Shown piece after piece: positions 25,415-59,900 of a DNA stretch of 64,000 bases. Position numbers and translations under genes: made by a program. The DNA is taken from positions 16,928,001 through 16,992,000 of the forward strand of contig CM075989.1 in assembly GCA_038087875.1 (NCBI GenBank), written 5' to 3'. A model generated the notes under the pieces. It was not told the DNA's origin, did no database searches, and was given only the letters and a program-made list of their open reading frames with translations. Within the stretch, counting starts at the first letter, position 1. Each line of letters begins with the position of its first letter. The DNA comes from Malacoraja senta. Its lineage: Eukaryota.

Positions 25415-25560
25415 GGGAGGGGGGAGGGACTATAAAACCCGGAAGTGGTGTGCCTCACTCAGTCTCTGCAAGATGGAGGAAGCGAGAGGGTCACGTCACG
25501 TCACGCCACGTCTCTCTGAGCTCTGAATAACACTGAACACATGTCTACTCAACTGTGAGT
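25415..25560 (+). promoter_or_regulatory. Pol II promoter/first-exon-like cassette in Helitron head
   Basis: G-rich box, TATAAAA 25431, CCGGAAGT 25439, Inr-like TCAGTCT with A at 25461 (30 nt after TATA), GTGAGT donor at 25555. Confidence 0.45.
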
Positions 25561-25589
25561 GCCCTTAATTTGGTTTGAAAATGAAAATA

Positions 25590-27200
25590 TGGTTGGTTTG
25601 AAGTAAAAAGGCACTGCAAATGGTTGTTTGGGGGTTTCGGGTTGAGGTAAAAAGGCACTGCAAATGGTTGTTTGGGGGGTTTGGGTTGAAGTAAAAATGC
25701 ACTGCAAATGGTTGTTTGGGGGGGGTTTGATTGAAGTAAAAAGGCACTGCAAATGGTTGTTTGGGGGGTTTGGGTTGAAGTAAAAAGGCACTGCAAATGG
25801 TTGTTTGGGGGGTTTGGGTTGAAGTAAATAGGCACTGCAAATGGTTGTTTGGGGGGTTTGGGTTGAAGTAAAAAGGCACTGCAAATGGTTGTTTGGGGGG
25901 TTTGGGTTGAAGTAAAAAGGGACTGCAAATGGTTGTTTGGGGGGTTTGGGTTGAAGTAAAAAGGCACTGCAAATGGTTGTTTGGGGGGTTTGGGTTGAAG
26001 TAAAAAGACACTGTAAATGGTTGTTTGGGGGTTTTGGGTTGAAGTAAAAAGGCACTGCAAATGGTTGTTTGGGGGTTTTGGGTTGAAGTAATACCGCACA
26101 ACAAATGGTTGTTTGGGGTTTTGGGTTGAAGTAAAAAGGCACTGCAAATGGTTGTTTGGGGGGTTTGGGTTGAAGTAAAAAGGCACTGCAAATGGTTGTT
26201 TGGGGGTTTTGGGTTGAAGTAAATAGGCACTGCAAATGGTTGTTTGGGGTTTTTGGGTTGAAGTAAAAAGGCACTGCAAATGGTTGTTTGGGGGGTTTTG
26301 GGTTGAAGTAAAAAGGCACTGCAAATGGTTGTTTGGGGTTGAAGTAAAAAGGCACTGCAAAGGGTTGTTTGGGGGTTTTGGGTTGAAGTAAAAAGGCATT
26401 GCAATTGTTTTTTGTTTTTTTTGGGGGTTGAAGTAAAAAGGCACTGCAAATGGTTGTTTGGGGTTGAAGTAAAAAGGCACTGCAAATGGTTGTTTGGGGG
26501 CTTTTGGGTTGAAGTAAAAAGGCACTGCAAATGGTTGTTTGAGGGCTTTGGGTTGAAGTAAAAAGGCACTGCAAATGGTTGTTTGGGGCGTTTGGGTTGA
26601 AGTAAAAAGGTACTGCAATGGGTTGTTTGGGGGTTTTGGGTTGAAGTAAAAAGGCAGTGCAAAGGGTTGTTTGGGGGTTTTGGGTTGAAGTAAAAAGGCA
26701 GTGCAAAGGGTTGTTTGGGGGTTTTGGGTTGAAGTAAAAAGGCAGTGCAAAGGGTTGTTTGGGGGGGTTTGGTTGAAGTAAAAAGACAGTGCAAAGGGTT
26801 GTTTGAGGGTTTTGGGTTGAAGTAAAAAGGCAGTGCAATGGGTTGTTTGGGGTTTGGGGTTGAAGTAAAAAGGCAGTGCAAAGGGTTGTTTGGGGGTTTT
26901 GGGTTGAAGTAAAAAGGCAGTGCAAAGGGTTGTTTGGGGGTTTGGGGTTGATGTGAAAAGGCACTGCAAAGGTTTGTTTGGGGGTTTTGGGTTGATGTGA
27001 AAAGGCACTGCAAAGGGTTGTTGGGGGTTTTTGGGTTGAAGTGAAAAGGCAATGCAAAGGGTTGTTTGGGGGTTTGAGGTAGAAGTGAAAAGGCACTGCA
27101 AAGGGTTGTTTGGGGGTTTTGGGTTGAAGTGAAAAGGCATTGCAAAGGGTTGTTTGGGGGTTTTGGGTTGAAGTGAAAAGGCACAGCAAATGGTTGTTTG
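25590..27200 (+). repeat. 44-bp minisatellite, ~36 copies
   Basis: Unit GGGTTGAAGTAAAAAGGCACTGCAAATGGTTGTTTGGGGGGTTT. Confidence 0.97.
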
Positions 27201-27589
27201 TCTAAACTTGACAACTTCCAGTTTTCACTATATTGATTTTAGATAAAACGCTACCTCTTACGGCTGTGATTTTTGGCCATCTTACTCAGTCCCCCTCCTC
27301 TCATCAGGTGCAGAGGATTCTTCCCATCAATGAAAAATAAAAGTGTTATTAGTGTTTAAAAAATGTTGAGAATCTCTCTCCTGTCATTCACGTCATGAAG
27401 GCCACACCTTTTCCGGTGGGAGGGGGAGGGATTATAAAACCCGTAAGTGTGGGTGTGGCTCAGTCTCTGCATGATGGGGGAGGGAGAGGTCACGACGGTC
27501 TGAGCTGTGAATCAACTGAACACACTGAATGTCTACTGAACTGTGAGTGTGGTGTTTTGTGTGGTTTTATGATGGTTTTATGGTGGTTT

Positions 27590-29570: not shown

Positions 29571-29773
29571 GTCATGTTGAATGTCGAAAATAAACGTCAG
29601 TGCGTAAGCTGCGGGGAAACACTGGCGCGGTAGTGAGCAAAGATCCTATAGCGAGCAAGGTAGTCCACTCCGCTATAGGATCTTTGGTCGTGAGCAGAGA
29701 ATAAATATAATGAGCCGAGGATGTGATGCTTGGGTCGTCGCTGTTGTCTGAGATGCAAGCGCCTGGAAAGATT

Positions 29774-30214
29774 ATGGGCTGCGAACATCCAAACTCGGAG
29801 GGGTTCTGCTACTTACTGGCGTTGGATTATTTCCGCTTTGTGCTAGACGGCTCGGAGTCGCAGCCGGCGGCCAACAGAGCGGCTGAAACTCTGCGCCGCT
29901 CCGGCTCCTCGTTGCCTGCAGACGGCCAGGAATTACAGCGCTGCGTCGACACATTAAACCTGGGGTCCGTGGAAGAGACGAAGCGAGTGCTCCCCGACTT
30001 AATGAGAGAGGTCTACTCGGACGGGATTGATAACTGGGACAGGATTGTAACTTTGTACACTTTCTGTGGGGACCTGGTCAGGCACTTGATAGAGAAGGGC
30101 GTACTTTATCGAGTGCTGATAGAAGAGGTAGCTCAGTTTGTCGCCCAATACACTTGGACTCACAAAGCTGCGTGGATCAAGGAGAATGGAGGCTGGGTCG
30201 GAGGAAGATTTTGA
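29774..30214 (+). CDS. BCL2A1: Bcl-2 family protein, BCL2A1/Bfl-1-like (exon 1 or single short ORF; may be non-functional)
   Basis: LALDYFRFVL, AETLRR, EVYSDGIDNWDRIVTLYTF (BH1), AWIKENGGW (BH2) align with recalled human A1; same-strand position upstream of MTHFS matches human 15q25. In-frame ATGs also at 29726 and 29753. GT at 30197 is the conserved post-GGW intron position; unspliced reading stops at 30214. Confidence 0.8.
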   Translation: MGCEHPNSEGFCYLLALDYFRFVLDGSESQPAANRAAETLRRSGSSLPADGQELQRCVDTLNLGSVEETKRVLPDLMREVYSDGIDNWDRIVTLYTFCGDLVRHLIEKGVLYRVLIEEVAQFVAQYTWTHKAAWIKENGGWVGGRF

Positions 30215-33801: not shown

Positions 33802-34061
33802 TTACTGGCTCATACCAAGTACAAGAACTGCCAAAGAGTTGCTGTCTTTCTGAGCATGTCTGATGAAATTCAGACAGAAGATATAATAAAAGATGTGCTC
33901 CAATGTGGAAAAGTGTTTCATTCCACGGTACAAGACTAGAAGCAACCACATGGATATGGTAAAGCTCAGCTCAGCTGAAGAAATCCACAACCTGCCCCTG
34001 ACTTCCTGGAACATTCATCAGCCTGCAGAAGATGTGTTGCTGGAAGAGGCTCTAACCACAG
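33802..34061 (+). pseudogene. MTHFS: MTHFS (5-formyltetrahydrofolate cyclo-ligase) exon 2, frameshifted
   Basis: Polypyrimidine+CAG acceptor, G|GTTGGT donor. Reads [37 protein letters not shown], then in a shifted frame [49 protein letters not shown]. Two bases missing near 33913 give TAG at 33937. Confidence 0.92.
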
Positions 34062-41730: not shown

Positions 41731-42107
41731 ACCACCATAAATCCACACAAAACACCACACTCAGTTCAGTAGACATTCAGTGTGTTCAGTTGATTCACAG
41801 CTCAGACAGAGTCGTGACCTCTCCCTCCCCTATCATGCAGAGACTGAGCCACACCCACACTTCCAGGTTTTATAATCCCTCCCCCTCCCACCGGAAAAGG
41901 TGTGGCCTTCGTGGCGTGATTGACGGGAGAGAGATTCTTAATATTTTTTAAACAGTAATAACACTTTTATTTTTCATTGATGGGAAGAATCCTCTGCACC
42001 TGATGAACGGAGGGTGACTGAGTAAGATGGCCAAAAATCACAGCCATAAGTGGTTCCGTTTTATCTAAAATCAATATAGTGCAAACAGGAAGTTGTCAAG
42101 TTCAGAC

Positions 42108-44575
42108 AAACAACCATTTGCAGTGCCTTTTCACTTCAACCCAAAACACTCAAACAACCCTTTGCAGTGCATTTTCACTTCAACCCAAAACCCCAAACAA
42201 CCCTTTGCAGTGCCTTTTCACTTCAACCCAAAACTCCCAAACAACCCTTTGCACTGCCTTTTCACTTCAACCCAAAAACCCCAAATAACCCTTTGCACTG
42301 CCTTTTCACTTCAACCCCAAACCCCCAAACAACTGTTTGCACTGCTATTTCACTTCAACCCATATCCCCCAAACAACCCTTTGCACTGCCTTTTCACTTC
42401 AACCCAAAACCCCCAAACAAACCTTTGCACTGCCTTTTCACTTCAACCCAAAACCCCCAAACAACCCTTTGCACTGCCTTTTCACTTCAACCCAAAAAAA
42501 ACAAACAACCCTTTGCACTGCCTTTTCACTTCAACCCAAAACCCCCAAACAACCCTTTGCACTGCCTTTTCACTTCAACCCAAAACCCCCAAACAACCCT
42601 TTGCACTGCCTTTTCACTTCAACCCAAAACCCCCAAACAACCCTTTGCACTGCCTTTTTACCTCAACCCAAAACCCCAAACAACCCTTTGCACTGCCTTT
42701 TCACTTCAACCGAAAAACCCCAAACAACCCTTTGTACTGCCTTTTTACCTCAACCCAAAACCTCCAAACAACCCTTTGCACTGCCTTTTTCATTCAACCC
42801 AAAACCCCCCAAACAACCCTTTGCACTGCCTTTTTACTTCAACCCAAAACCCCCAAACAACCATTTGCAGTGCCTTTTTACGTCAACCCAAACCCCCCAA
42901 ACAACCATTTGCAGTGCCTTTTTACTTCAACCCAAACTCCCCAAACAACCATTTGCAGTGCCCTTTTACTTCAACCCAAACCCCACAAACAACCATTTGC
43001 AGTGCCTTTTTACTTCAACCCAAACAACCATTTGCAGTGCCTTTTTCCTTCAACCCAAAACCCCCCAAACAACCACTTGCAGTGCCTTTTTACGTCAACC
43101 CGGACCCCCCAAACAACCATTTGCTGTGCCTTTTTACGTCAACCCAAACCCCCCAAACAACCATTTGCAGTGCCTTTTTACGTCAACCCAAACCCCCTAA
43201 ACAACCATTTGCAGTGCCTTTTTACGTTAACCCAAACCCCCCTAACAACCATTTGCAGTGCCTTTTTACGTCAACCCAAACCCCCCAAACAATCATTTGC
43301 AGTGCCTTTTTACGTCAACCCAAAACCCCCAAACAACCATTTGCAGTGCCTTTTTACGTCAACCCAAACCCCCCAAACAACCATTTGCAGTGCCTTTTTA
43401 CTTCAACCCAAACCCCCCAAACAACCATTTGCAGTGCCTTTTTACTTCAACCCAAACCCCCCAAACAACCATTTGCAGTGCCTTTTTACTTCAACCCAAA
43501 CCCCCCAAACAACCATTTGCAGTGCCTTTTTACTTCAACCCAAAATCCCCCAAACAACCACTTGCAGTGCCTTTTTACGCCAACCCAAACTCCCCAAACA
43601 ACCATTTGCTGTGCCTTTTTACGTCAACCCAAACCCCCCAAACAACCATTTGCAGTGCCTTTTTACGTCAACCCAAAACCCCCAAACAATCCTTTGCACT
43701 GCCTTTTCACTTCAACCCCAAACCCCCAAACAACACATTGCACTGCCTTTTCACTTCAACCCATATCCCCCAAACAACCCTTTGCACTGCCTTTTCACTT
43801 CAACCCAATACCCCCAAACATCCCTTTGCACTGCCTTTTCACTTCAACCCAAAACCCCCAAACAACCCTTTGCACTGCCTTTTCACTTCAACCCAAAAAT
43901 CCCAAACAACCCTTTGCACTGCCTTTTCACTTCAACCCCAAACCCCCCAAACAACCATTTGCAGTGCCTTTTTACTTCAACCCAAACAACCATTTGCAGT
44001 GCCTTTTTACGTCAACCCAAACCCCCCAAACAACCATTTGCTGTGCCTTTTTACTTCAACCCAAACCCCCCAAACAACCATTTGCAGTGCCTTTTTACTT
44101 CAACCCAAATCCCCCAAACAAACATTTGCAGTGCCTTTTTACTTCCACCCAAACCCCCCAAACAACCATTTGCAGTGCCTTTTTACTTCAACCCAAAACC
44201 CCGCAACAACCACTTGCAGTGCCTTTTTATGTCAACCCAAACCCCCCAAACAACCATTTGCTGTGCCTTTTTACGTCAACCCAAACCCACCAAACAACCA
44301 TTTGCAGTGCCTTTTTACATCAACCCAAACCCCCCAAACAACCTTTTGAAATGCCTTTTTACGTCAACCCAAACCTCCCCAAACAACCATTTGCAGTGCC
44401 TTTTTACGTCAACCCAAACCCCCCAAGCAACCATTTGCAGTGCCTTTTTACATCAGCCCAAACCCCCCAAACAACCATTTGTAGTGCCTTTTTACATCAA
44501 CCTAAACCCCCCAAACAACCATTTGCAGTGCCTTTTTACGTCAACCCAAATCCCCCAAACAACCATTTGCAGTGC
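42108..44575 (-). repeat. 44-bp minisatellite, ~56 copies
   Basis: Unit AAACAACCATTTGCAGTGCCTTTTTACTTCAACCCAAACCCCCC. Confidence 0.97.
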
Positions 44576-45849
44576 AAAGGGAACAGGCATCAGGCATCAG
44601 GCATGCATTAATCTACAGTGAACTGGAGAGAGTTGTCAGAGGCAGAACAGACTTAGTGACCAAGTGTTGTATCCAGCCTGTGGGTCAAACAATTGGGTTT
44701 TAGTGTGTTAAGTGCATTCCATTTAATTTCATATTTAGGCAGACGCATCAGATGTTCAAGCCCCAATTCTGAAGAAATGTCTTGACCCGAAACGTCACCC
44801 ATTCCTTCTGTCCAGAGATGCTGCCTATCCCGCTGAGTTACTCCAGCATTTTGTGTCTACCTCCCATTTTTAACCATTGGGATCCTTAAGTCTTGTTTAT
44901 GGCACATTCTTCTCTCTAAATGATATTGTCATAAACAATTATCTTACATTTATAACATAACTATATTTAATTGTTCATATTTATTTTGCCTCCATTTGGG
45001 TACTTTAAATCTCCAGCTACTATTAGCATTGAAAATGCCCAATTTACCCAGCAGATGGCAGTGCACTACAAATCTTTGCGAGTTGTTCAAAGTGCTGACC
45101 TCCATCAAGTGGCCTGCCTTTGCTAATACCTTTACCTCTGCTTCTTTGTAGAAGTCCTGATGTTGAATGAGTGTAGACCTGCTCTTAAGCTGTTAATTCA
45201 AGTTCCATCTGTCGATTTTTGAACTGACCTTTCTTACGCTGTGACATTGAGTTCTGTGAGACAGCATAGACTTTGTCGTGCTACATTACTGTGAGCTTAC
45301 TCTAAGCCATTAATGTTGGTGCTGGTTGAATCATTGTAACAATGTTCATATCAGTGGATATTGTCAAGAAGATGATGCATTTTTGAGTTGCACTGGTATG
45401 AAAGGGGATTTGTTTATGTTTTGTCTAAATCAAATTGAACCTGCACATGAGTCAAATGTCAGGGGAATACGATGACTATAGTTACAACACTGGCATCTCC
45501 CCAACAGTGTGGAAAACTGCATAATACATAAATTGCTGGATTGTTCAAATTCTGCCTTGCATTTAAATATGATTAACCACTTCCATCGAGCATCCTTCAG
45601 GCTTAAAAAGCTGCTTGAATCAACAATGAATTAAAGGCCAGGCATTTCTTGAATGTTTACTGTGGAGACCACTTGAGAACTCCCATCTGAAAGCCAGTGA
45701 AATCAGCTGACTGGGCTAAAGTTATTTGAGTTTTCAAAATATGGTTTCTGTACAACAGATTTCAGAGTGTGGGTAGCTGTGAGTGAAGGGGCTTTGGTAA
45801 GCACAGGGATGACAGAGTAAAAGGGGGTCATTTTATAAATTAGAATGAT

Positions 45850-48850: not shown

Positions 48851-50251
48851 CAGTGTTACCCTCGATAATCAGAACATGATGTCTTTACTCTTCTTTATTC
48901 TTCTACTCAGATCTTCCAATGAAGGCAATGTACCATTTGACTTCCCAGTTGCTACTGAATCTGCTTAATCCTTTAATCTTTAGTGCTTTGTGTACAAGGA
49001 CACTCTGGTCCCTCTGAACACCGACACCTTTTCATTTCTCGCCATTCACAAAAGTACTCTGCATTTCTATTTTCTGCTCGTCCGAAAGCTCAAAATTCTA
49101 CTGTTCCCCTGAATCTGGATTTCCTTTTCTTCTCCACTTGTATCTCTCTCTCATTATTCCATCTCCCCACTTAACCTTCCCCACTACCTTCTACTTAGTC
49201 TCCCCACCCCGCCCCCCTCTGACCAACTGCTCATTCTCTGCTGGTGTACAGTTTCTCCTTGGCATAATGCTCACTTCCCCGGAGAGATTTCTGATCCTGG
49301 CCTAATCTTATCATTACCTTCCAACCTCAACTTATTGTTGTAAAGTGGAATGCTTTAATCAACATTTAAAAGGCATTCATCATATTGGTGATGTTTTAAT
49401 TAAAGTCATGTCATTATTTGTTTTACTACCAGCTGTGAGAATCAATACACAAAAGTCCAATGCTGATGCTTTAGTCTTTATTGATAAATCTGCAAACAGC
49501 GGTAGCTACTGACTACATTCTATAAAATACAGCATGCGTGCATTATCTTTGCACCTTTGAAGTTGCATTTGCTTTGTTTTGCCGAGCAGGCCATGATTTA
49601 ATGTGCAGGAAGGAACTGCAGATGCTGGTTCAAACTGAAGATTGACACGAAATGCTGGAGCAACTATAGTTAAAGGAAAAAGGGAAACAAGAGATATAAC
49701 GAGCTCTATCTCTCATTTCCCTTCCCCTGACTCTTAATTTAAAGATGGGTCTCGACCCGAAACGTCACCCGTTCCTTATTTCCAGCAATGCTGCCTGTCC
49801 CGCTGAGTTACTCCAGCATTTTGTATCTATCTTCAGGCCATGATTTAACTTCCATTCAGACACGGTCTTCAATGATCCGTGCCTTTGGCTCCTCTGCACG
49901 GTACTTCTTACTTAACTTCTAATTCTTTTGGTCTTGTTCAACATTTATCTATGAACTGGATTAATTATTGGAGCACATTCTGCAACAGCCCAAGCAATAA
50001 GCATTTTTTTAAAGTGAAAACACACTTGAAATCATCTGTGATTTCCAGGGACAATCCACTCTCCTTTTTGGTGTCTGGACATGTGAGATTGGTGGGACAA
50101 AACCTTTGTCTGTAAAATTGAGCACGTTATTTTCTGACTACTGAAATGAGTATTCAGCAGGTTCTACTTGAAACTTCAGATTCTATCCCACCAAGCTCTT
50201 ATGTTGCAACATTGAAGATAAGAATGAACCCTGACATTTCACGCTGACTTC

Positions 50252-50649
50252 TTAGTATAAAGGACTTATTAGAAATCCCTGGAAGCTGATTGATCCATCC
50301 CGGCTCCAGAGTGTTCCTTTTTCAAGCATGACCCACACAGAGTCGCACGGGCTGAGTTTCAATATGGCATTCTTGACAGCGAGCTGGCTGGTACCACCTC
50401 CCAGCACACTGTGGATGTTACTGATTCTTTTATTATTCTTCATCAGGACCACGTCAGTCTGAACCCCTTTCATTGGCAGAGAAGTAAAACTGAAGAAGCA
50501 AAAACCAGCAAGAGGGCTTTGGAACTTCCCAGTGTTGTTGTTGTAACCTCCGGCTTTGTTGAGATTGACCTTATCATAAATAATGATCACGTTGGACTTT
50601 CTCAGATGATTCTGTGAGGTACGCTCTACATCAAATAAAACGTTTTTGC
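50252..50649 (-). CDS. Globular C1q domain protein, exon 4 (C1q domain)
   Basis: Acceptor TTTACTTTCACAG|GC (phase 1). KNVLFDVERTSQ...IIYDKVNLNKAGGYNNNTGKFQSPLAGFCFFSF...VVLMKN...AILKLSPCDSVWV...SFQGFLISPLY* follows the gC1q pattern. Confidence 0.88.
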
Positions 50650-52199
50650 CTGTGAAAGTAAAAATCGTAGATTGATCCTAATGGCAATATGACTACTTTT
50701 ATTATCTCTCCTTATTGATGAGGTAAAGGTTAAAGTGTAGAGCACAATCCACCTTGTATATAAGCAAACAAAATTCAAACAATTTGAGGCAATTGACTTG
50801 GATTGGAAATGGAAAAGTGCAAATCACATTCTAGAGCATTTAATTATAGGGAGTTGTGGGTTATTCAAAGGGAAGGCATTGAATACTGAGAGAAAAATAA
50901 AAATGGGCAGCTTTTATAGAGTCAATAGCCCGGGCAGCGTTTAGCTGCATTCCTGTAACAGACCACAGAATTGCATTTCAGAACGGCAAAGTTGGTGTTT
51001 CCTGAGGAACCAAAGGGTGAGAGTAGGTGAATCAGCAAGGGAGAGAAGTGGGCGTACGACAGATGTTGGGTTAATAATACAGGTGAAACCAGGTTGAATA
51101 TGAAAAGATTAGAGGGGAAAATGAAAAAGCATATAAAAGATAATACATGGACAGTCAACATAAATGAAGCTTCTATAGAGTAAATTAAGAAAATTCCCCT
51201 TGGTTGAAATGTCAGGATCCAGAAAAAATATAAACTTCTTAAATGCAGAAATTAGTGATGACCTGAAATACATTATCCTCAATAACGTGCGGACAGAAGA
51301 TTTGGTCATGTTTATCAAAAAAGAATTGGAGAACTACTTGAAGGAACAATGTTTCCATGCCCAAGAAAGGAGCCAATTGATCAATCTATCTCAAGTACTC
51401 CTTGAAGAATTTGAACTGGATTGGATGGATTAAATGCCCTTTTTGTGCTGGAATGAGTTACTTCCAGTTTATGGAACTGGCAGGTTGTTGCAGAGTAAAT
51501 CTACTCCTAAAAAAGACACAAAGTGCCAGATTAACTCAGTGGATCAGGCAGCATCCCTGGAGAACATGGGTACGTGACATTTTGGGTCGGGACCCTTAGT
51601 ACTAATTGTAGGTTTATCATCTCTGGCCTTTGTCCAACTATCTGCCAATCAAAACCCCGCCTCGCCTATGTTTACCAATTACTGACCGTGATTTGTCATT
51701 TCCCCTCCGCTCTTCCAGGTTTCCCTTCCTCTCCCCCACCCTAAAAAAAGTCAGTTTGAAGAAGAATCCCGAGAGTTACTCAACCCGCTGAGTTACTCCA
51801 GCACTTTGTGTCTTTTTCTATAGACCAACAACTTGTTTCTAAATCTACTCCTTTTCCCACCCTATTACAACAATCAGCCTGTTTCCTAATCTCATGAAAG
51901 CATCCTCTTTACTTATTCCAGTGTTAACATTCAGTCTATTTGCTACCATTTAGTCTTACCTCTGTCTGCTTGGTCTTGCATTTAGGTGCATTAGATTAAA
52001 TGTGGAACTGGACTGAAACTAACCAAACATCACACCCCAACAGCTACACGAGGCTTTCATTCAATTTATTTGGGGTTGAGTCAAACACCAAAATGAAAGG
52101 AAACTTATGTCCTCTAGCAACATTCAGTTTCCATTTCGGGTTTAATACCCAAGTGTGGAAAGAAGTAAAATGGGCCGTGGACTGATCCCATTCCACATT

Positions 52200-54343
52200 T
52201 TCACAGAACTGAGACAGCTCCGATAGTCTAAAGAGGAAGCCTACAGGAGCGGGGATGCAGACCGCTACAGACAGGCGAAGTACAAGCTGAGATGAGAAAT
52301 CAGAGCTGCCAAGGAAAGATACTCTGAGAAGTTGAGGAGCAAGTTCTCAGTTAGTGACTCTTTTTCAGTTTGGAAGGGGTTACAAGAAATCACCAGCTCC
52401 AAGAGGAACGCCCCCCACCCCCTCTCTTTGGACAATTGTCAGCTAACCAATGACCTGAATTAGTTCTACTGCAGGTTTGACAAGCAGAAATGTAACCCTG
52501 GTACCACCTCCCCCACTCCCCAACGAACACAGCCAGACCCCCTTCCACACCCACTCCTCCCCAATCACCACTTCACACCTACTTAAAGCAAGACTCCAGT
52601 CTGAAAAGACTGGACCCTTTCCCACCCCAACCAACACTTCACACCCACTCACAGCCTGACCCCAGCCTGCAAAGACTGGACCCTTTCCCACCCACCCCTC
52701 TCCAATCACCACTTAATACCCAATTACAGCCTGACTGCAAAAGACTGCTGCCTCGTCCACTACCCACCCCCTCCGTGCTGCACAACGTCACTTCTCCATC
52801 ATCAACAATAAAAATAGAGGTGGACAGGCTGTTAAAAGACAGTAAAGCCAAAATCTCCAGGACCGGACAATGTTTCTGCCTCTACACTCGAGCTCTGTGC
52901 CGAACAACTGGCACCGGTCTACACAGACATTTTCAACCAGTCCCTGCAAACCTGTGCTGTACCTACCTGCTTCAAAGTCTCCACTATTGTCCCTGTACCC
53001 AAAAAGGGAAAGATTACTGGTCTTAGTGACTACAGGCCTGTCGCACTGACCTCTGTAGTCATGAAGACCCTTGAAAGGCTTGTGCTGGCCAAGCTGAAAA
53101 ATATCACAAACGCCCTGCTGGACCTTCTGCAGTTTGCATATCGGGCCAATATATCTGTGGATGACGCAGTCAACCTGGGCCTGCACCGCATGCTCCAGCA
53201 CCTAGACTGCCAGGGAACCTATGCGAGGATTTTGTTTGTTGATTTTAGCTCTGCATTCAACACCATTGTGCCAGAGCTACTACACTCCAACGTTTTGAGT
53301 TGACTGTGCCTGAACCCCTCTGTCAGTGGATCACCAGCTTCCTGACTGACAGGAAGCAGCATGTGAGGCTGGGAAAGCACATCCCAGACCCGCAGATCCT
53401 CGGCGTAGGAGCACCGCAAGGCTGCGTACTCTCCTCTCTCCTCTACTCTCAACACCAATGACTGCACCTCCACTGACTCCATCTCAACCTTGCAGATGAC
53501 ACAACTGTGATTGGACCTACAGACAGGAAGTGACACAGCTGGAGTCCTGGTGCCATCGCAACAACCTGGAGCTCAATGTTCTTAAGACCGTGGAATTGAT
53601 TGTAGACTTTAGGAGTGTTCCCACTCCCCTCACACCACTCACCATCAACAACACCACAGTCACATCTGTGGAGTCTTTTAAGTTCCTGGGAACCATCATC
53701 TCCAAGGACCTTAAATGGGGGGGGGGGGGGGGGGCCACCATTGACTCCACAGTCAAAAAGGCACAACAGAGGATTATTTCCTGCGGCAGCTTAGGAAGCA
53801 CAATCTGCCACAGGCAATGATGGTCCAATTCTATATGCCATCATAGAGTCTGTCCTCAGCTTCTCCATCATGGTCTGGTTTGGCTCAGCCACCAAGCGTG
53901 ATATGCGGAGGCTGCAGCGAATCGTCCGATCAGCTGAGAAGGTTATTGGCTGCAACCTTCCCTCCATTGACGAACTGCACACTGCAAGGGCCAGGAAGCG
54001 AGCGTGTAACATCATCTCTGACCCCTCTCACCCTGGCCAGAAACTCTTTGAATCACTTCCCTCTGGAAGGCGACTCCGGACTGTCAAAGCTGCCACAGCC
54101 AGACATAAAAACAGCTTTTTTTCCATGAGCAGCAGCTCTACTCAATAACCAAAAATCTGTAGCCTCATTTTGCTCTGGTATTTTATTTAATTCCCACGTT
54201 TAATCGATAATGTTTTATTAATAATGTTTTATGTGTCATTCCTAACTTTCACTCTATGTCATGTTGTCACTTGCGGGGGGGGGGAGCACCAAGGCAAATT
54301 CCTTGTATGTGAATACTTGGCCAATAATCTTATTCATTCATTT
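52200..54343 (+). mobile_element. Rex1/Babar LINE, 5'-truncated and decayed
   Basis: [66 protein letters not shown]; (ATTC)n tail. Confidence 0.9.
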
Positions 54344-54563
54344 ATCATCTGGAGTAGGGCCAATGGCCACCAGTTAGAAAGTGGAATGGAATGGATTTCC
54401 TCCCATTCTAACCTGGAATTAGTTATGGTGTCATTATTATTATTGACACACGACGAATATGTTTTATTAACTCATGAATTAACTCATGGTTGAATTACGT
54501 GGCCATCATGGCAAGCAACAATTCGCTATACCCACAACTTTTTTTTCACAAAAGAAAACTCAC

Positions 54564-54654
54564 CTCTGCACTGAATATTATCCTTTCTCATTTTGGGATT
54601 TGGCATTTGAGCCTCGTGCAGTGGTTTCACATCCATTTCTTCATCATGTGTTTC
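54564..54654 (-). CDS. C1q-domain gene exon 3 (linker)
   Basis: TTCAG|GAA...AGAG|GTGAGT; 91 bp, phase 0 to 1, ETHDEEMDVKPLHEAQMPNPKMRKDNIQCR(G); in frame with exon 4. Confidence 0.7.
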
Positions 54655-55374
54655 CTGAACCATTCAAATAATTGGAAGAAAACTCATCAATTGTTCAGGC
54701 CATTCATTCATAAAGAAACAAGCAATTAATTAATTAATTAATCCCTAATAGTTTTTTTTTGCCAAAAGTCATTTTGGAAGATCTTAACACTTTAAACCGT
54801 ACAATGCAAAATTACTTTTGAAACTTTAACACAAGATATATTTGGCTTCTGTGATGGTTTATGTAAAACGTATATTGCAGAGGAAATGATGTGAACTGGA
54901 AGGGACACGACCATGAAGAAATTCAAATAATAGAATGATAACTTAAATGGAAGATGTTGGGGATCCACAGTCAATGAACAAGGATAGGATTGGTGGGGGA
55001 GTTAGAGTAGAGGGTGAAATAAGATGTATAGATAAAAAGAGAGTGAGAGAGGAAGAAAGAGTAGCAGTAAGGCGCAAAAGGAGAATAAAGATGTAGAAGG
55101 AAGGAAGGAGCATAGGAACAGATGCAAGGCAAGAGAAAGGACGGGATGAAACAGTAAAAGATCATGAAGCAAACTAATCAGATACAGAACGGTGATATCA
55201 GAGCAAAGATAAATAATTGGACAATCAAAGAATAGCTGGAACAGAGAGATGAAGGGAAAGAGTACAAAATGAACTGGAATATTGTGACCATAAGGGGGGG
55301 AAGGCAGAGAAAGAAATAACTGGTGTAAATCAAATGGTATTAGAAAATACATATAATTAATTTTCTATCCTTAC

Positions 55375-55461
55375 CAGAAAATATTCCAAATATTCCTGAT
55401 GATCGTCCAAAGTGCTCGATTGATAGATACAGTAAAAGAGGATCAAATACAGCAGGTTTCC
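55375..55461 (-). CDS. C1q-domain gene exon 2 (signal-peptide-like)
   Basis: TTTTATTTCAG|GGA...CTG|GTAAGG; 87 bp, GNLLYLILFYCIYQSSTLDDHQEYLEYFL. Confidence 0.7.
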
Positions 55462-55540
55462 CTGAAATAAAATAAAACATCCTTTCACTTGGGCAAAAAG
55501 AACCACATTTGTTAAACGTTGCCAATGCAACTTCACGTAC

Positions 55541-55543
55541 CAT
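55541..55543 (-). CDS. C1q-domain gene exon 1 coding part (ATG only)
   Basis: AAAATG|GTACGT donor, 79-bp intron to exon 2, A at -3. Confidence 0.6.
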
Positions 55544-55612
55544 TTTGATCACAGCAGCTTTCTTCTCTCCAACTTCTTGTTCAGCCAATGTGTTTGGTCT
55601 TCAGGTCGTTGG

Positions 55613-55618
55613 TTTATA
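55613..55618 (-). promoter_or_regulatory. Candidate TATA box of C1q-domain gene
   Basis: TATAAA on minus strand ~70 nt upstream of the ATG. Confidence 0.45.
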
Positions 55619-56546
55619 ACTCCTTCTGTTTCACACATTTGAAGCATCGCCAAATGAGATTTGATCATATTTTGGTGCTTCCTCCAAATATGTCGTAAGT
55701 CCAGCCTCCAAAGTAGCAAACCCAGAGTCAGTATCATTCTTTTTTTTAAATAATATTTTTATTAGAAGCAAAGACATATTATGGTAAAAACATTTCATGT
55801 ATATCAATCATATATTATTAATATTATCAATTGTGGATTGATTCTGCTTCTAGTTTTTTTTTTAATAGATAGAAAGTGAGAAAGAAAGAGAGAAGAAAAA
55901 ACACAAATGTCAAGATAAAAAAAAAAGAGTGGAATAATTTACTAATAATACATCATTGGAGATAGGTTCATAGGTCATAAAGTATAACTTTTCATCTAAT
56001 CCTAAGTTCAAGCTTCAGTTAGGTTCCCGTGCCGAACCGATCTACCCCTTCAAATAGTCAATGAATGGAGACCATATTCTAACAAAAAGTTCTTGTTTGT
56101 CCATTAAGACAAGTCTGATTCTTTCCAGGTGTAGGGTCTCCGACATTTCCATAATCCACATTTTAATTGTGGGGTTATAGGACCTTTCCAAAATTTTAAT
56201 ATTAATTCTTTCCCAGTTATTATACTGTAGTCTAGGAAGTTTCTTTGGCTTGTTGTGAATGTTAGACTTTGTTCTGATATTCCAAGTATTATTAGTTTTG
56301 AGTCGGGATCCAATTTAGTATTGACAACTTCAGAAATTATTCTAAAAATATCAATCCAGAATTTTTTAATTTTTATACAATTTGCAAAAGTATGTGTTAA
56401 GGTTAGCCTCTAGATGCTGACATTTATCACAAATAGGAGAGATATGTGGGAAAATTCTATTTAGTTTTGCTTTAGAATAATGTAATCTGTGTAATATTTT
56501 AAATTGTATTAAAGCATGTCTGGCGTTTAACGAGCATTGATGTATA

Positions 56547-58154
56547 CAGTGGCTTGCAAAAGTTTTCATACCCCTTGAACTTTTCCACATTTTGTCACGT
56601 TACAACCACAAACGTAAATGTATTTTATTGGGATTTTATGTGATAGACCAACACAAAGTGGTGCATAATTGTGAAGTGGAAGGAAAATGATACATGGTTT
56701 TCAAATTTATTTACAAATAAAAAACTGAAAAGTGTCGCGTGCAAAAGTATTCAGCCCCCCTGAGTCAATACTTTGTAGAACCACCTTTCGCTGCAATTAC
56801 AGCTGCAAGTCTTTTGGGGTATGTCTCTACCAGCTTTGCACATCTAGAGACAGAAATTTTTGCCCATACTTCTGTGCAAAATAGCTCAAGCTCAGTCAGA
56901 TTGGATGGAGAGCGTCTGTGAACAGCAATTTTCAAGTCTTGCCAGAGATTCTCAATTGGATTTAGGTCTGGACTTTGACTGGGCCATTCTAACACATTAA
57001 TATGCTTTGATCTAAACCATTCCATTGTAGCTCTGGCTGTATGTTTAGGGTCGTTGTCCTGCTGGAAGGTGAACCTCCGCCCGAGTCTCAAGTCTTTTGC
57101 AGACTCTAACACGTTTTCTTCCAAGATTGCCCTGTATTTGGCTCCATCCATCTTCCCATCAACTCTGACCAGCTTCCCTGTCCCTGCTGAAGAAAAGCAT
57201 CCCCACAGCATGATGCTGCCACCACCATGTTTCACAGTGGAAATGGTGTGTTCAGGGTGATGTGCAGTGTTAGGTTTCCGCCACACATAGCGTTTTGCAT
57301 TTGGGCCAAAAACGTCAATTTTGGTCTCATCTGACCAGAGCACCTTCCTCCACATGTTTGCTGTGTCCCCCACATGGCTTGTGGCAAACTGCAAACGGGA
57401 CTTCTTATGGCTTTTTTTCAACAATGGCTTTCTTCTTGCCACTCTTCCATAAAGGCCCGATTTGTGGAGTGCACGACTAATAGTTGTCCTGTGGACCGAT
57501 TCTCCCACCCAAGCTGTGGTTCTCTGCAGCTCCTCCAGAGTTACCATGGCTGCTTCTCTGATTAATGCTCTCCTTGCCCACCCTGTCAGTTTAGTTGGAC
57601 GGCCATGTCTTGGTAGGTTTGCAGTTGTGCCATACTCTTTCCATTTTCGGATGATGGATTGAACAGTGCTCCGTGAGATGTTCAAAGCTTGGGATATTTT
57701 TTTATAACCTAACCCTGCTTTAAACTTCTCCACAACTTTAACCCTGACCTGTCTGGTGTGTTCCTTGGGCTTCATGATGCTGTTTGTTCACTAATGTTCA
57801 CTAACAAACCTCTGAGGCCTTCACAGAACAGCTGTATTTATACTGAGATTAAATGACACACAAGTGGACTATATTTACTAATTAGGTGACTTCTGAAGGC
57901 AATTGGTTGCACTGGATTTTATTTAGGGGTATCAGAGTAAAGGGGGCTGAATACTTTTGCACGCGACACTTTTCAGTTATTTATTTGTAAAACAATTTGA
58001 AAACCATGTATCATTTTCCTTCCACTTCACAATTATGCTCCACTTTGTTTTGGTCTATCACATAAAATCCCAATAAAATACATTTACGTTTGTGGTTGTA
58101 ACGTGACAAAATGTGGAAAAGTTCAAGGGGTATGAATACTTTTGCAAGCCACTG
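56547..58154 (-). mobile_element. Full-length Tc1 (DD34E) transposon, Passport-like
   Basis: TA|CAGTGGCTTGCAAAAG...TTTGCAAGCCACTG|TA; ~210-bp IR/DR-type TIRs; 1608 bp. Confidence 0.97.
56765..57775 (-). CDS. Tc1 transposase, 336 aa, uninterrupted
   Basis: WSDETK, QQDNDPKH, SPDLNPIE with 34 residues between D and E; GRP-type hook; VARRKPLL. Confidence 0.95.
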   Translation of the reverse strand: MKPKEHTRQVRVKVVEKFKAGLGYKKISQALNISRSTVQSIIRKWKEYGTTANLPRHGRPTKLTGWARRALIREAAMVTLEELQRTTAWVGESVHRTTISRALHKSGLYGRVARRKPLLKKSHKKSRLQFATSHVGDTANMWRKVLWSDETKIDVFGPNAKRYVWRKPNTAHHPEHTISTVKHGGGSIMLWGCFSSAGTGKLVRVDGKMDGAKYRAILEENVLESAKDLRLGRRFTFQQDNDPKHTARATMEWFRSKHINVLEWPSQSPDLNPIENLWQDLKIAVHRRSPSNLTELELFCTEVWAKISVSRCAKLVETYPKRLAAVIAAKGGSTKY

Positions 58155-59709
58155 TATATTGTAGACTTTTGTCCCAAATATCTTTTGTTATAGGTTGGCC
58201 TAATTCATTTTCCCATGTGTGTCTATATGATTCCATCGATGGGACCTCATTATCTAAGAGGGTGTTATAAATATAAGTTATTAATTTTTCTGTATTAGGA
58301 TGTTTATTCAAACATTCGTCAAGGATTTCTGGTTCCCTAGTCCTATAATTTTGTGTATTAGATTTAACATAATCTCTAAGTTGTAGATATCTGAAAAAAT
58401 TATTTGAGTGTAGTCCGTAGATCTGTTGTAACTCCTGAAATGAAAGAAAAGTGCCTTTCCTATAAAGATGTCCCATCTTTTTAATTCCATAATTTTTTCC
58501 ATTGTGTGAAACCTTTATCCATAGTCAGTATCATTCTTGCTGATGAATCATCCCTAAATGTTTATGAACATGTTGCTGAGTTTGCCAACTCGAGGCACTG
58601 TCCTGAACAAAACGAGGCCACACGGGCATCTGAGAAGAATGGTGTTGTTGTCACTTCACACATGCACAAACAAAATAATCCTCGCATCTTCATCCCGAGT
58701 CCTAGCTTCCAGTTCTCGGTACTTCCATTTTCGTTGGTACTTCTGTAGTTTTTGCTTTTCTGACCACTTCTGTTATATCACAAACAGGAGCAGGGGTAAA
58801 CCATTTGGGCTTTCAATCCTGCTCCACTATTCATTCAAAATAATGATTGGTCTTTTTCATTATGATAATGATTGATCTTTCTCCTGCATTAGGTCAATAT
58901 CCCTTAATATCCAGAAATCTATTCTCTGAACACAAGTAAGCAACGATTAAGAAAATAATTAAACAATGAAGTACATTAAAGTTAATTAAAATGTTATTTC
59001 CACAATTTTGTTAATAGTAAACTTGATGTTCCCTTGATCTTTATACATTATAATAATGTTTCATGAAGTATGACGTACTGTTAAACATCTTGAGATTATG
59101 AAAAGCCCTCTAATTCCAAGATATTTTCTTTAATACTTTTTTAACTACACTTTATCTAGAACCAATAAAACTCACTTCTTGCTTGCCTTAGAAAAGCTTG
59201 TATTGGCCTGAAATGTGTGCCTTTTCTGTTTTTATTGCAGCTTTACAGTATCTGCAGTTTCTTACTTTAAGAATAGAGGACAAGGCTTTGTTGGATTATT
59301 TTTTTAAGTTGTGTGGAGCCTCTTCTATACGGTCCCGTTAAATGCTTCCAGATCATCATCATGGTGAAAGGAGTCTATTTGAGGGCAACAATACAAACTT
59401 TTGTTATTCTTAACCTTAAACAACTCCTGAAATATTTCACAACAGCTTTATTAAACAAGACTTAATATTTATATTACTACCTTAAACCTATTCTTTTGCA
59501 TTCAGTAAAAGTCACACAGATGTAGTACAAAAATATTTGATATCAACCCATGCAACAAATGAAAAAAGAAAGACAGGAGTTTGCTTGTTAAAGTTCCTCA
59601 GCTGGACACTCTCTTCTGACATGTAGTTCGGTGTTTTTTTTAACCTTCATATGGTTATCTACTTGATATTCTTTCTCTTTCAACTTAATATTCTTGCTCT
59701 TTCAAACAG

Positions 59710-59900
59710 GAGGCCTTGATCTGATCCTGATGCCTGGAAGAGGGAAGGGTTACTATGACACTTACCTGGAGCGTTGTCTTAAGCATCCAAAGGGCAAACC
59801 CTACACAATTGCCTTGGCCTTCCAGGAGCAGATATGTGATCTGGTGCCTGTGACTGAAAGTGATAAGCTAATTGATGAAGTATTTTATGAGACATCGTAG
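59710..59900 (+). pseudogene. MTHFS: MTHFS last exon with in-frame 11-codon deletion
   Basis: Acceptor AAACAG|GA (phase 1, fits the exon 2 donor). GLDLILMPG^[53 protein letters not shown]; conserved LGFDxxGNRLG is absent. Confidence 0.92.

Follow-up and report, generated by a model that had tools for sequence, protein, structure and literature searches.

The stretch of DNA analyzed here (the window) comprises 64,000 nucleotides of the genome of the skate Malacoraja senta (CM075989.1; C13:16928001-16992000) and carries a gene for a small protein with a globular C1q (gC1q) domain, situated antisense inside an intron of MTHFS, which encodes a folate enzyme. Pfam searches identified three C1q exons, three copies of MTHFS exon 3, and three BCL2-family exons within 170 kb, and the gene of the window (copy 3) was one of three tandem copies. 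Its four minus-strand exons joined in frame to 579 nt, encoding 192 codons plus a stop, and were separated by introns of 79, 720, and 3914 nt with GT-AG borders in all three cases. The features of the gene are as follows.

49482 to 50251, minus strand: likely 3' untranslated region, with the first AATAAA at 49482 and an ATTAAA at 49602.
50252 to 50649, minus strand: coding part of exon 4, with the entire gC1q domain (Pfam match), fast-evolving according to divergence counts.
54564 to 54654, minus strand: exon 3, encoding stalk with one Cys and without a Gly-X-Y collagen run; intron 2 joint found in run X10.
55375 to 55461, minus strand: exon 2, encoding a hydrophobic signal-peptide-like segment and the start of an acidic stalk; exceeds exon 2 of copies 1 and 2 by 9 nt.
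55541 to 55543, minus strand: coding end of exon 1, the ATG only, preceded by a 5' leader.
55613 to 55618, minus strand: putative TATAAA box beginning at 55618, 75 nt upstream of the ATG with no other ATG between, found in all three copies.

Four sequencing runs were aligned to positions 49800-55800. Contigs of run X10, derived from a relative and with no run type on record, joined 55460 to 55541 (80 positions skipped and 1 letter between, corresponding to the 79-nt intron 1, with 30 letters on the short side) and 54653 to 55388 (734 skipped and 5 between, corresponding to the 720-nt intron 2 plus the 9 nt exclusive to exon 2 of copy 3). Two of the three junctions put forward in a preliminary description of this DNA were thereby found as predicted; the 15 of 200 X10 joints listed do not include that of intron 3, and this intron rests on RefSeq protein models. 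Over the exons X10 reached a depth of ~60-580 per bin, and several intron bins of unique sequence had a depth of 0. Contigs from both X10 and X2 spanned 49802-50531, overlapping the likely 3' untranslated region, and coverage of the gene in runs X1 and X3 was low and patchy. Because all three copies keep the splice sites and frames, X10 joins introns 1 and 2, and RefSeq proteins of related species span all four exons, the reading frame is more than a chance assembly of open segments, and a real four-exon C1q gene in the window is virtually certain.

Exon 4 matched the Pfam C1q family (PF00386) with 71.6 bits (cut-off 23.7; E 9e-20) over profile positions 2-127 of 127. A downstream frame of 290 codons had no Pfam match. 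A structure predicted from an 11-row alignment, with a predicted local distance difference test score (pLDDT) of 82 and a predicted template modeling score (pTM) of 0.78, placed exon 4 of copy 3 in the all-beta jelly-roll fold of gC1q, and its comparison with solved gC1q chains gave template modeling (TM) scores of 0.78-0.87 at 21-27% identity, with no subfamily standing out. Residues 1-15 contain a hydrophobic core (9-residue hydropathy 1.8-2.6), after which come small polar residues, and a Pro-containing stalk of ~40 residues separates this signal-like segment from the domain. The stalk is acidic and the domain basic (calculated pI 9.4-9.7). One Cys is present in the stalk, missing in one Rhinoraja copy, and Gly-X-Y runs of at least three were found in none of the 10 full-length family proteins. 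Judged from these sequence features, the product is likely a small, secreted, collagen-less protein of the globular-head type. The four-exon frame, the TATAAA box, the C-terminal C1q domain, the hydrophobic N-terminus, the absence of collagen, the lineage expansion, and the antisense position in MTHFS intron 2 had all been described beforehand, and these statements held.

A self-comparison of 264 kb resolved three tandem units starting near 16,817,059, 16,893,196, and 16,957,686, each composed of a BCL2-family gene, MTHFS, and a nested C1q gene. The window holds the end of the second and the start of the third, and its C1q gene lies between exons 2 and 3 of the MTHFS copy of the third.

29686 to 64000, no strand: unit 3 of the tandem triplication, extending past the window end; bases 1-29685 belong to the end of unit 2.
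29710 to 30196, plus strand: remnant of exon 1 of the BCL2-family gene (BCL2A1 position) at the start of unit 3; exon 2 lost through a 3,125-nt deletion.
33802 to 34061, plus strand: MTHFS exon 2, duplicate copy, frameshifted by a 2-nt deletion.
59710 to 59900, plus strand: MTHFS exon 3, duplicate copy, with a 33-nt deletion.

The BCL2-family exon 2 was lost from units 2 and 3 by a common deletion, and MTHFS exon 2 is absent from unit 2. Unit 1, ~140 kb upstream, retains intact MTHFS exons 2 and 3 with its own nested C1q copy. In the assembly its exon 2 contains one extra A; run X7 has a DNA contig (depth 34) that shows 0 substitutions versus unit 1 and lacks this base, as do contigs of two relatives that run on into MTHFS exon 1 and exon 3, and because the matching contig lacks the extra A the unit 1 frame was judged intact. 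MTHFS exon 1 was not found at up to 5 mismatches in the 264 kb, at up to 2 mismatches genome-wide, or by protein search, and it most likely sits in a gap of 200 N located 1.4 kb before unit 1 exon 2 (C13:16824124-16824323), which has G/A-rich flanks and occupies the expected position. Loss of MTHFS from the species was considered and rejected on the evidence of the X7 and relatives' contigs. The working MTHFS is most likely that of unit 1, and the copy in the window a redundant passenger. The preliminary description had proposed that an intact C1q gene in a broken host might be the functional unit of the locus: C1q is the part that stays intact, and the host is broken as described (both deletions, exon 1 not found) because the window holds a duplicate unit. 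Mis-assembled haplotypes were also rejected as a source of the units: the three copies are 4% divergent and carry different insertions, and copies 1 and 3 are each matched by a DNA contig of their own, that of run X6 (depth 3) carrying unit 3 changes including the 2-nt MTHFS deletion. Either X6 or X7 may derive from the source sample. A fourth unit was not found in 17.039-17.092 Mb, and genome-wide matches to the 5' exons of the C1q gene numbered three only.

Comparison of the copies revealed a major difference between the domain exon and its surroundings. The three C1q genes lie 64-77 kb apart with common splice sites, open frames throughout (189, 188, and 192 codons), and indels of 3 or 9 nt only. 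Flanking DNA outside the C1q exons differed by 4.0% in each pair (1569/39321, 1129/27900, and 908/22873 columns, which include short MTHFS and BCL2-family exons) and exon 4 by 12.8-18.2% (71/391, 51/398, and 70/394). Exon 4 exceeded every one of 229 segments of 390 columns (100, 71, and 58; segment maxima 8.5-8.7%), and the excess fell off at its edges. Exon 2 differed by 2.6-3.8% (2-3 of 78 columns), exon 3 by 4.5-10%, and the MTHFS and BCL2-family passenger exons by 1-6%, i.e., a 3-4-fold excess of change is confined to exon 4 and the signal-peptide exon is at background. Among the three copies together, 5.7% of 18,303 background columns varied compared to 32/126 second codon positions of exon 4 (P 7.5e-13; codon counts exclude the last six alignment columns). 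Variable residues in exon 4 numbered 47/126 versus a mean of 15 (maximum 31) in 5000 neutral simulations, and private changes per branch were 42, 19, and 22 against ~7.4 expected, so that all three branches were accelerated. Pairwise dN/dS (the ratio of nonsynonymous to synonymous change) for the whole domain was 1.2-1.9, and site model M2a was preferred to M1a (p 7e-7). A ratio near 1 had been named in advance as grounds for discarding the gene, which would have been misleading, as whole-domain ratios of this size coincide with amino-acid change far above the flanking rate. The variable residues were densest in the first loop (7/10), and from skates to stingray the first 20 residues were identical at 16-20 of 20 positions and the domain at 53-95%. 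Diversifying selection on the C1q domain is very probably the best reading of this pattern.

The comparison with flanking DNA is a strong test that leaves some limited room for exon 4 lineages older than their flanks, i.e., paralogues untouched by the gene conversion that homogenized the flanks, with selection acting as maintenance and not as rapid change. This alternative, which we regard as distinctly improbable, would fit the variation of four-fold sites (12%, 4/33, versus 5.7%), the model estimates of synonymous divergence (dS 0.06-0.11 versus 0.04), the several differences held by many altered codons (10-20 of 35-42), the grouping of copy 2 with orthologues from other genera (support 82/80), and the mosaic sharing of exon 3 length by copies 1 and 3 and of structural changes by copies 2 and 3. 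However, the excess at synonymous sites does not reach significance (P 0.12), variation at second positions is twice as frequent as at four-fold sites, and the flanks diverge evenly in a near-star pattern over the 18,303 columns (339/342/354 private changes) with differing insertions. Both the fast-change and the older-lineage readings need selection for different domains.

An intact nested gene with a domain driven apart by positive selection has to be weighed against several contrary observations. The selection tests used three sequences only and our own codon-model implementation; M2a exceeded M1a at only p 0.03 once double and triple changes were allowed, the one-ratio dN/dS of 1.6 was not significantly above 1 (p 0.135), and neither the pairwise counts against synonymous sites (P 0.09-0.32) nor the contrast of second positions with four-fold sites (P 0.078) reached significance. 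Enrichment of variable residues in loops was not significant (25/58 versus 22/66 in strands, P 0.18), one orthologue pair between genera was 95% identical, suggesting that acceleration was episodic, and secretion was assessed from hydropathy alone. Further points of the same kind concern copy 3 itself. The GxYxF motif with its Tyr is a hallmark of the gC1q family, and in copy 3 it reads GFCFF, as had been correctly noted previously; the accompanying view of a divergent domain does not extend to the family, in which Tyr is kept by 12 of 13 members and Cys occurs in copy 3 only. A 2.8-kb insertion near the TATA box is likewise exclusive to this copy, and no RNA run from the source species is recorded for the C1q stretch.

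55741 to 58519, no strand: 2.8-kb insertion found in copy 3 only, located ~120 nt upstream of the TATA box and bordered by a short direct repeat.
51848 to 54411, no strand: intron 3 insertion of 2.6 kb derived from a retroelement, lacking in copy 1 and shared in part with copy 2, with an RVT_1 match at 52836-53300.

The motif Cys lowers confidence in copy 3 and not in its assignment to the gC1q family, and the copy may be weakening. Together with the insertion, which parts the TATA region from upstream sequence, and the RNA record, it could be explained by a recently decaying gene that was formerly selected and is now silent or misfolded. We consider this doubtful, and a little more so than the older-lineage alternative, since frame, splice sites, and TATA box show no damage, half of the neutral simulations put a stop into one or more copies even without indels, the copy 3 branch carries 22 private exon 4 changes against 7.6 expected, and the model folds at pLDDT 82, helped by the alignment.

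The gene had been presented as hidden, which did not hold in general, as orthologues spanning all four exons and sharing the N-terminus are annotated in RefSeq for three skates and one stingray, i.e., Amblyraja radiata (XP_032906509), Leucoraja erinacea (XP_055517140/142), Rhinoraja longicauda (XP_078283244/346/359), and Hypanus sabinus (XP_059808585). A search with exon 4 returned four proteins among 20 candidates, all of them skate RefSeq models, and an alignment search added one stingray protein and one sister-clade member (six among 869 candidates). RefSeq accession numbers fall next to those of MTHFS (Amblyraja 506-508/509; Leucoraja 140, 142/143-144; Rhinoraja 243/244; Hypanus 584/585), in each case on a contig of the same size, which suggests linkage of the two genes in all four of the named batoid species found. 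The batoid models, which are orthologues or paralogues, resemble copy 3 in N-terminus, length (186-203 aa), domain (57-72% identity), and, in two species, presence in more than one copy; in contrast, the Tyr-to-Cys change and the longer exon 2 are found only in the window, and the model names are automatic. Although annotated elsewhere, the gene seems unstudied: a literature search, with most subscription journals outside its reach, found no paper on the gene or subfamily; two shark proteome papers treat C1q in general only, and one supplement held no match.

The RefSeq labels ("CTRP3-like," "CTRP4-like," and "cerebellin-4-like") would imply a signaling ligand of the cerebellin or CTRP3 type, and Cbln1 chains were the top structural matches (TM 0.83), cerebellins moreover sharing the gC1q fold and the lack of collagen. 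However, all gC1q structures matched about equally well, and identity was 22-26% to Cbln1/4 chains. Cerebellins have a two-Cys N-terminal motif and a domain split over exons, neither of which is found here; in the CTRP3 (C1QTNF3) cluster of the ESM Atlas 99% of members have Collagen, compared with no Gly-X-Y segment in copy 3. The names are not supported by this architecture of no collagen, one stalk Cys, and a single-exon domain. A profile search of 1.84 billion representatives yielded 6871 proteins at E 0.001, and a quick tree of 43 rows was built from 17 single-domain hits among the 150 best of these, 13 members of the family, and 13 further C1q domains from the genome; 22 of the 43 rows formed one clade (SH-aLRT 97), separate from the remaining single-exon C1q domains of the genome, in a tree that had no split-exon cerebellins among its rows. 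Rapid change is also unlike the conserved cerebellin and CTRP ligands, and a signaling role of this type is very unlikely. Within the tree, two unnamed proteins with the same signal-peptide motif adjoin the batoid group. Three sister genes with C1q heads at C9 38.90-39.12 Mb share a similar layout of signal, stalk, and domain exons, being 35-41% identical to copy 3 and 69-75% among themselves, with a Leucoraja counterpart (XP_055486167). Related unnamed proteins (P0154, P0158, P0175, and P0192) have a His-rich stalk before the C1q domain, and a search of this genome gave no close counterpart (best 39% identity). Elsewhere in the genome, C1q-domain exons form identically scoring pairs (C6:9.83-10.32 Mb and C8:33.99-34.03 Mb), which suggests recent duplication or duplicated assembly.

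The explanation we favor, with moderate confidence, is that an intact, nested, collagen-less gC1q gene was triplicated with its host and its domain driven apart by positive selection as an innate recognition protein. Given its position inside MTHFS, the gene could be amplified by unequal crossing-over only together with the whole host block; the duplicated passengers would have lost promoters or exons and then degenerated, and selection would have retained the C1q copies and driven their diversification. As known for the family, the secreted protein would form trimers, possibly linked further through the single stalk Cys, and its basic domain may bind anionic surfaces or glycans. By analogy with other C1q systems, we infer a role as a lectin or pattern-recognition protein in which the domain, as lectin or opsonin, would track microbial surfaces, and innate recognition in an arms race, probably with microbes, is somewhat better than an even proposition as the driver. 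The main rival retains gene and selection and assigns the driver to reproduction or another secretion, i.e., an egg-case, oviducal, seminal, or skin-gel protein with a fast-evolving partner. Reproductive proteins, too, typically combine a conserved signal exon with a mature domain that is hypervariable, and exon depth, which was high in one of the four runs and low in the other three, could indicate expression restricted to certain tissues, though the depth of contigs is no basis for ranking genes. No tissue evidence points to gonad and the nearest documented parallels are immune, and we hold such a reproductive or other secretory role to be unlikely, if the least so among the alternatives. 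An extension of the innate recognition reading, speculative and about as improbable as the older-lineage alternative, is that skates and rays have an undescribed, germline-diversified family of C1q heads, amplified in blocks, whose paralogous heads mix into heterotrimers of differing specificity. If true, this would be an invertebrate-style innate sensor in animals that also have antibodies, with three copies here and three on another chromosome.

The locus draws attention to a family of fast-evolving, probably secreted proteins in cartilaginous fishes that is unstudied and currently mislabeled as CTRP3-like or cerebellin-like. Its interest lies in the triplication with strong exon-limited divergence and not in the nesting or the broken host. 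It is a clean case of a nested gene amplified with its host, in which the broken MTHFS and BCL2-family copies serve as an internal neutral control (1-6%) for the domain exon (13-18%), and the variable residues of three copies of the same age could be used for direct tests of altered ligand specificity. It also advises caution, as a broken host gene in a single window can be a redundant copy and a one-base break an assembly error.

Several neighboring features were observed. A two-exon BCL2-family gene at the BCL2A1 position of unit 1 (C13:16817083-16820231) lacks one base in exon 1 that units 2 and 3 have, which may again be an error of assembly. Upstream on the opposite strand is a zf-A20 gene, presumably in a position like that of ZFAND6, which adjoins BCL2A1 and MTHFS in mammals. 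The bird protein model P0052 joins a Bcl-2 domain to MTHFS and fits the same gene order on one strand. Inside the 2.8-kb insertion, a Tc1/mariner element (56543-58158) has 224-nt inverted repeats, 96% complementary, and an open transposase frame of 340 codons (56765-57787) with Pfam Tc3 HTH, HTH_SB, and DDE_3 matches; it looks young. Long tandem arrays of a short unit at 25545-27238 and 42022-44621, with repetitive open frames of 550-850 codons, are likely minisatellite. The end of unit 3 (C13:17040576-17046600) contains two long open frames of 765 and 1240 codons, which we take to resemble an intact non-LTR retroelement.

The nearest parallels by features in the ESM Atlas were mollusc C1q-domain (C1qDC) clusters of the same size. 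In oyster, C1q-domain genes are reported to occur in tandem copies with episodic positive selection on the C1q head, and the secreted globular-head C1q (sghC1q) type is defined by a domain directly after the signal peptide (PMC6835236); scallop CfC1qDC is described as binding pathogen-associated molecular patterns (PAMPs) and acting in opsonization (PMC3419688). The skate genes resemble bivalve sghC1q and C1qDC proteins in a signal-peptide-like segment plus gC1q, the lack of collagen, tandem expansion, and probable episodic head selection (PMC6835236 for the bivalve genes). They differ in belonging to a vertebrate, in numbering six compared with hundreds, in the acidic stalk of 40 residues, in being nested in a housekeeping gene, and in exon divergence exceeding intron divergence, whereas in the oyster example the intron is the faster-diverging part, and the likeness is one without orthology shown. 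Lamprey LC1q is described as a GlcNAc-binding lectin with 28 Gly-X-Y repeats that recruits MASP and has one N-terminal Cys proposed as a chain link (PMC6015906); the skate protein resembles it in the gC1q domain and single N-terminal Cys and differs in having no collagen stalk.

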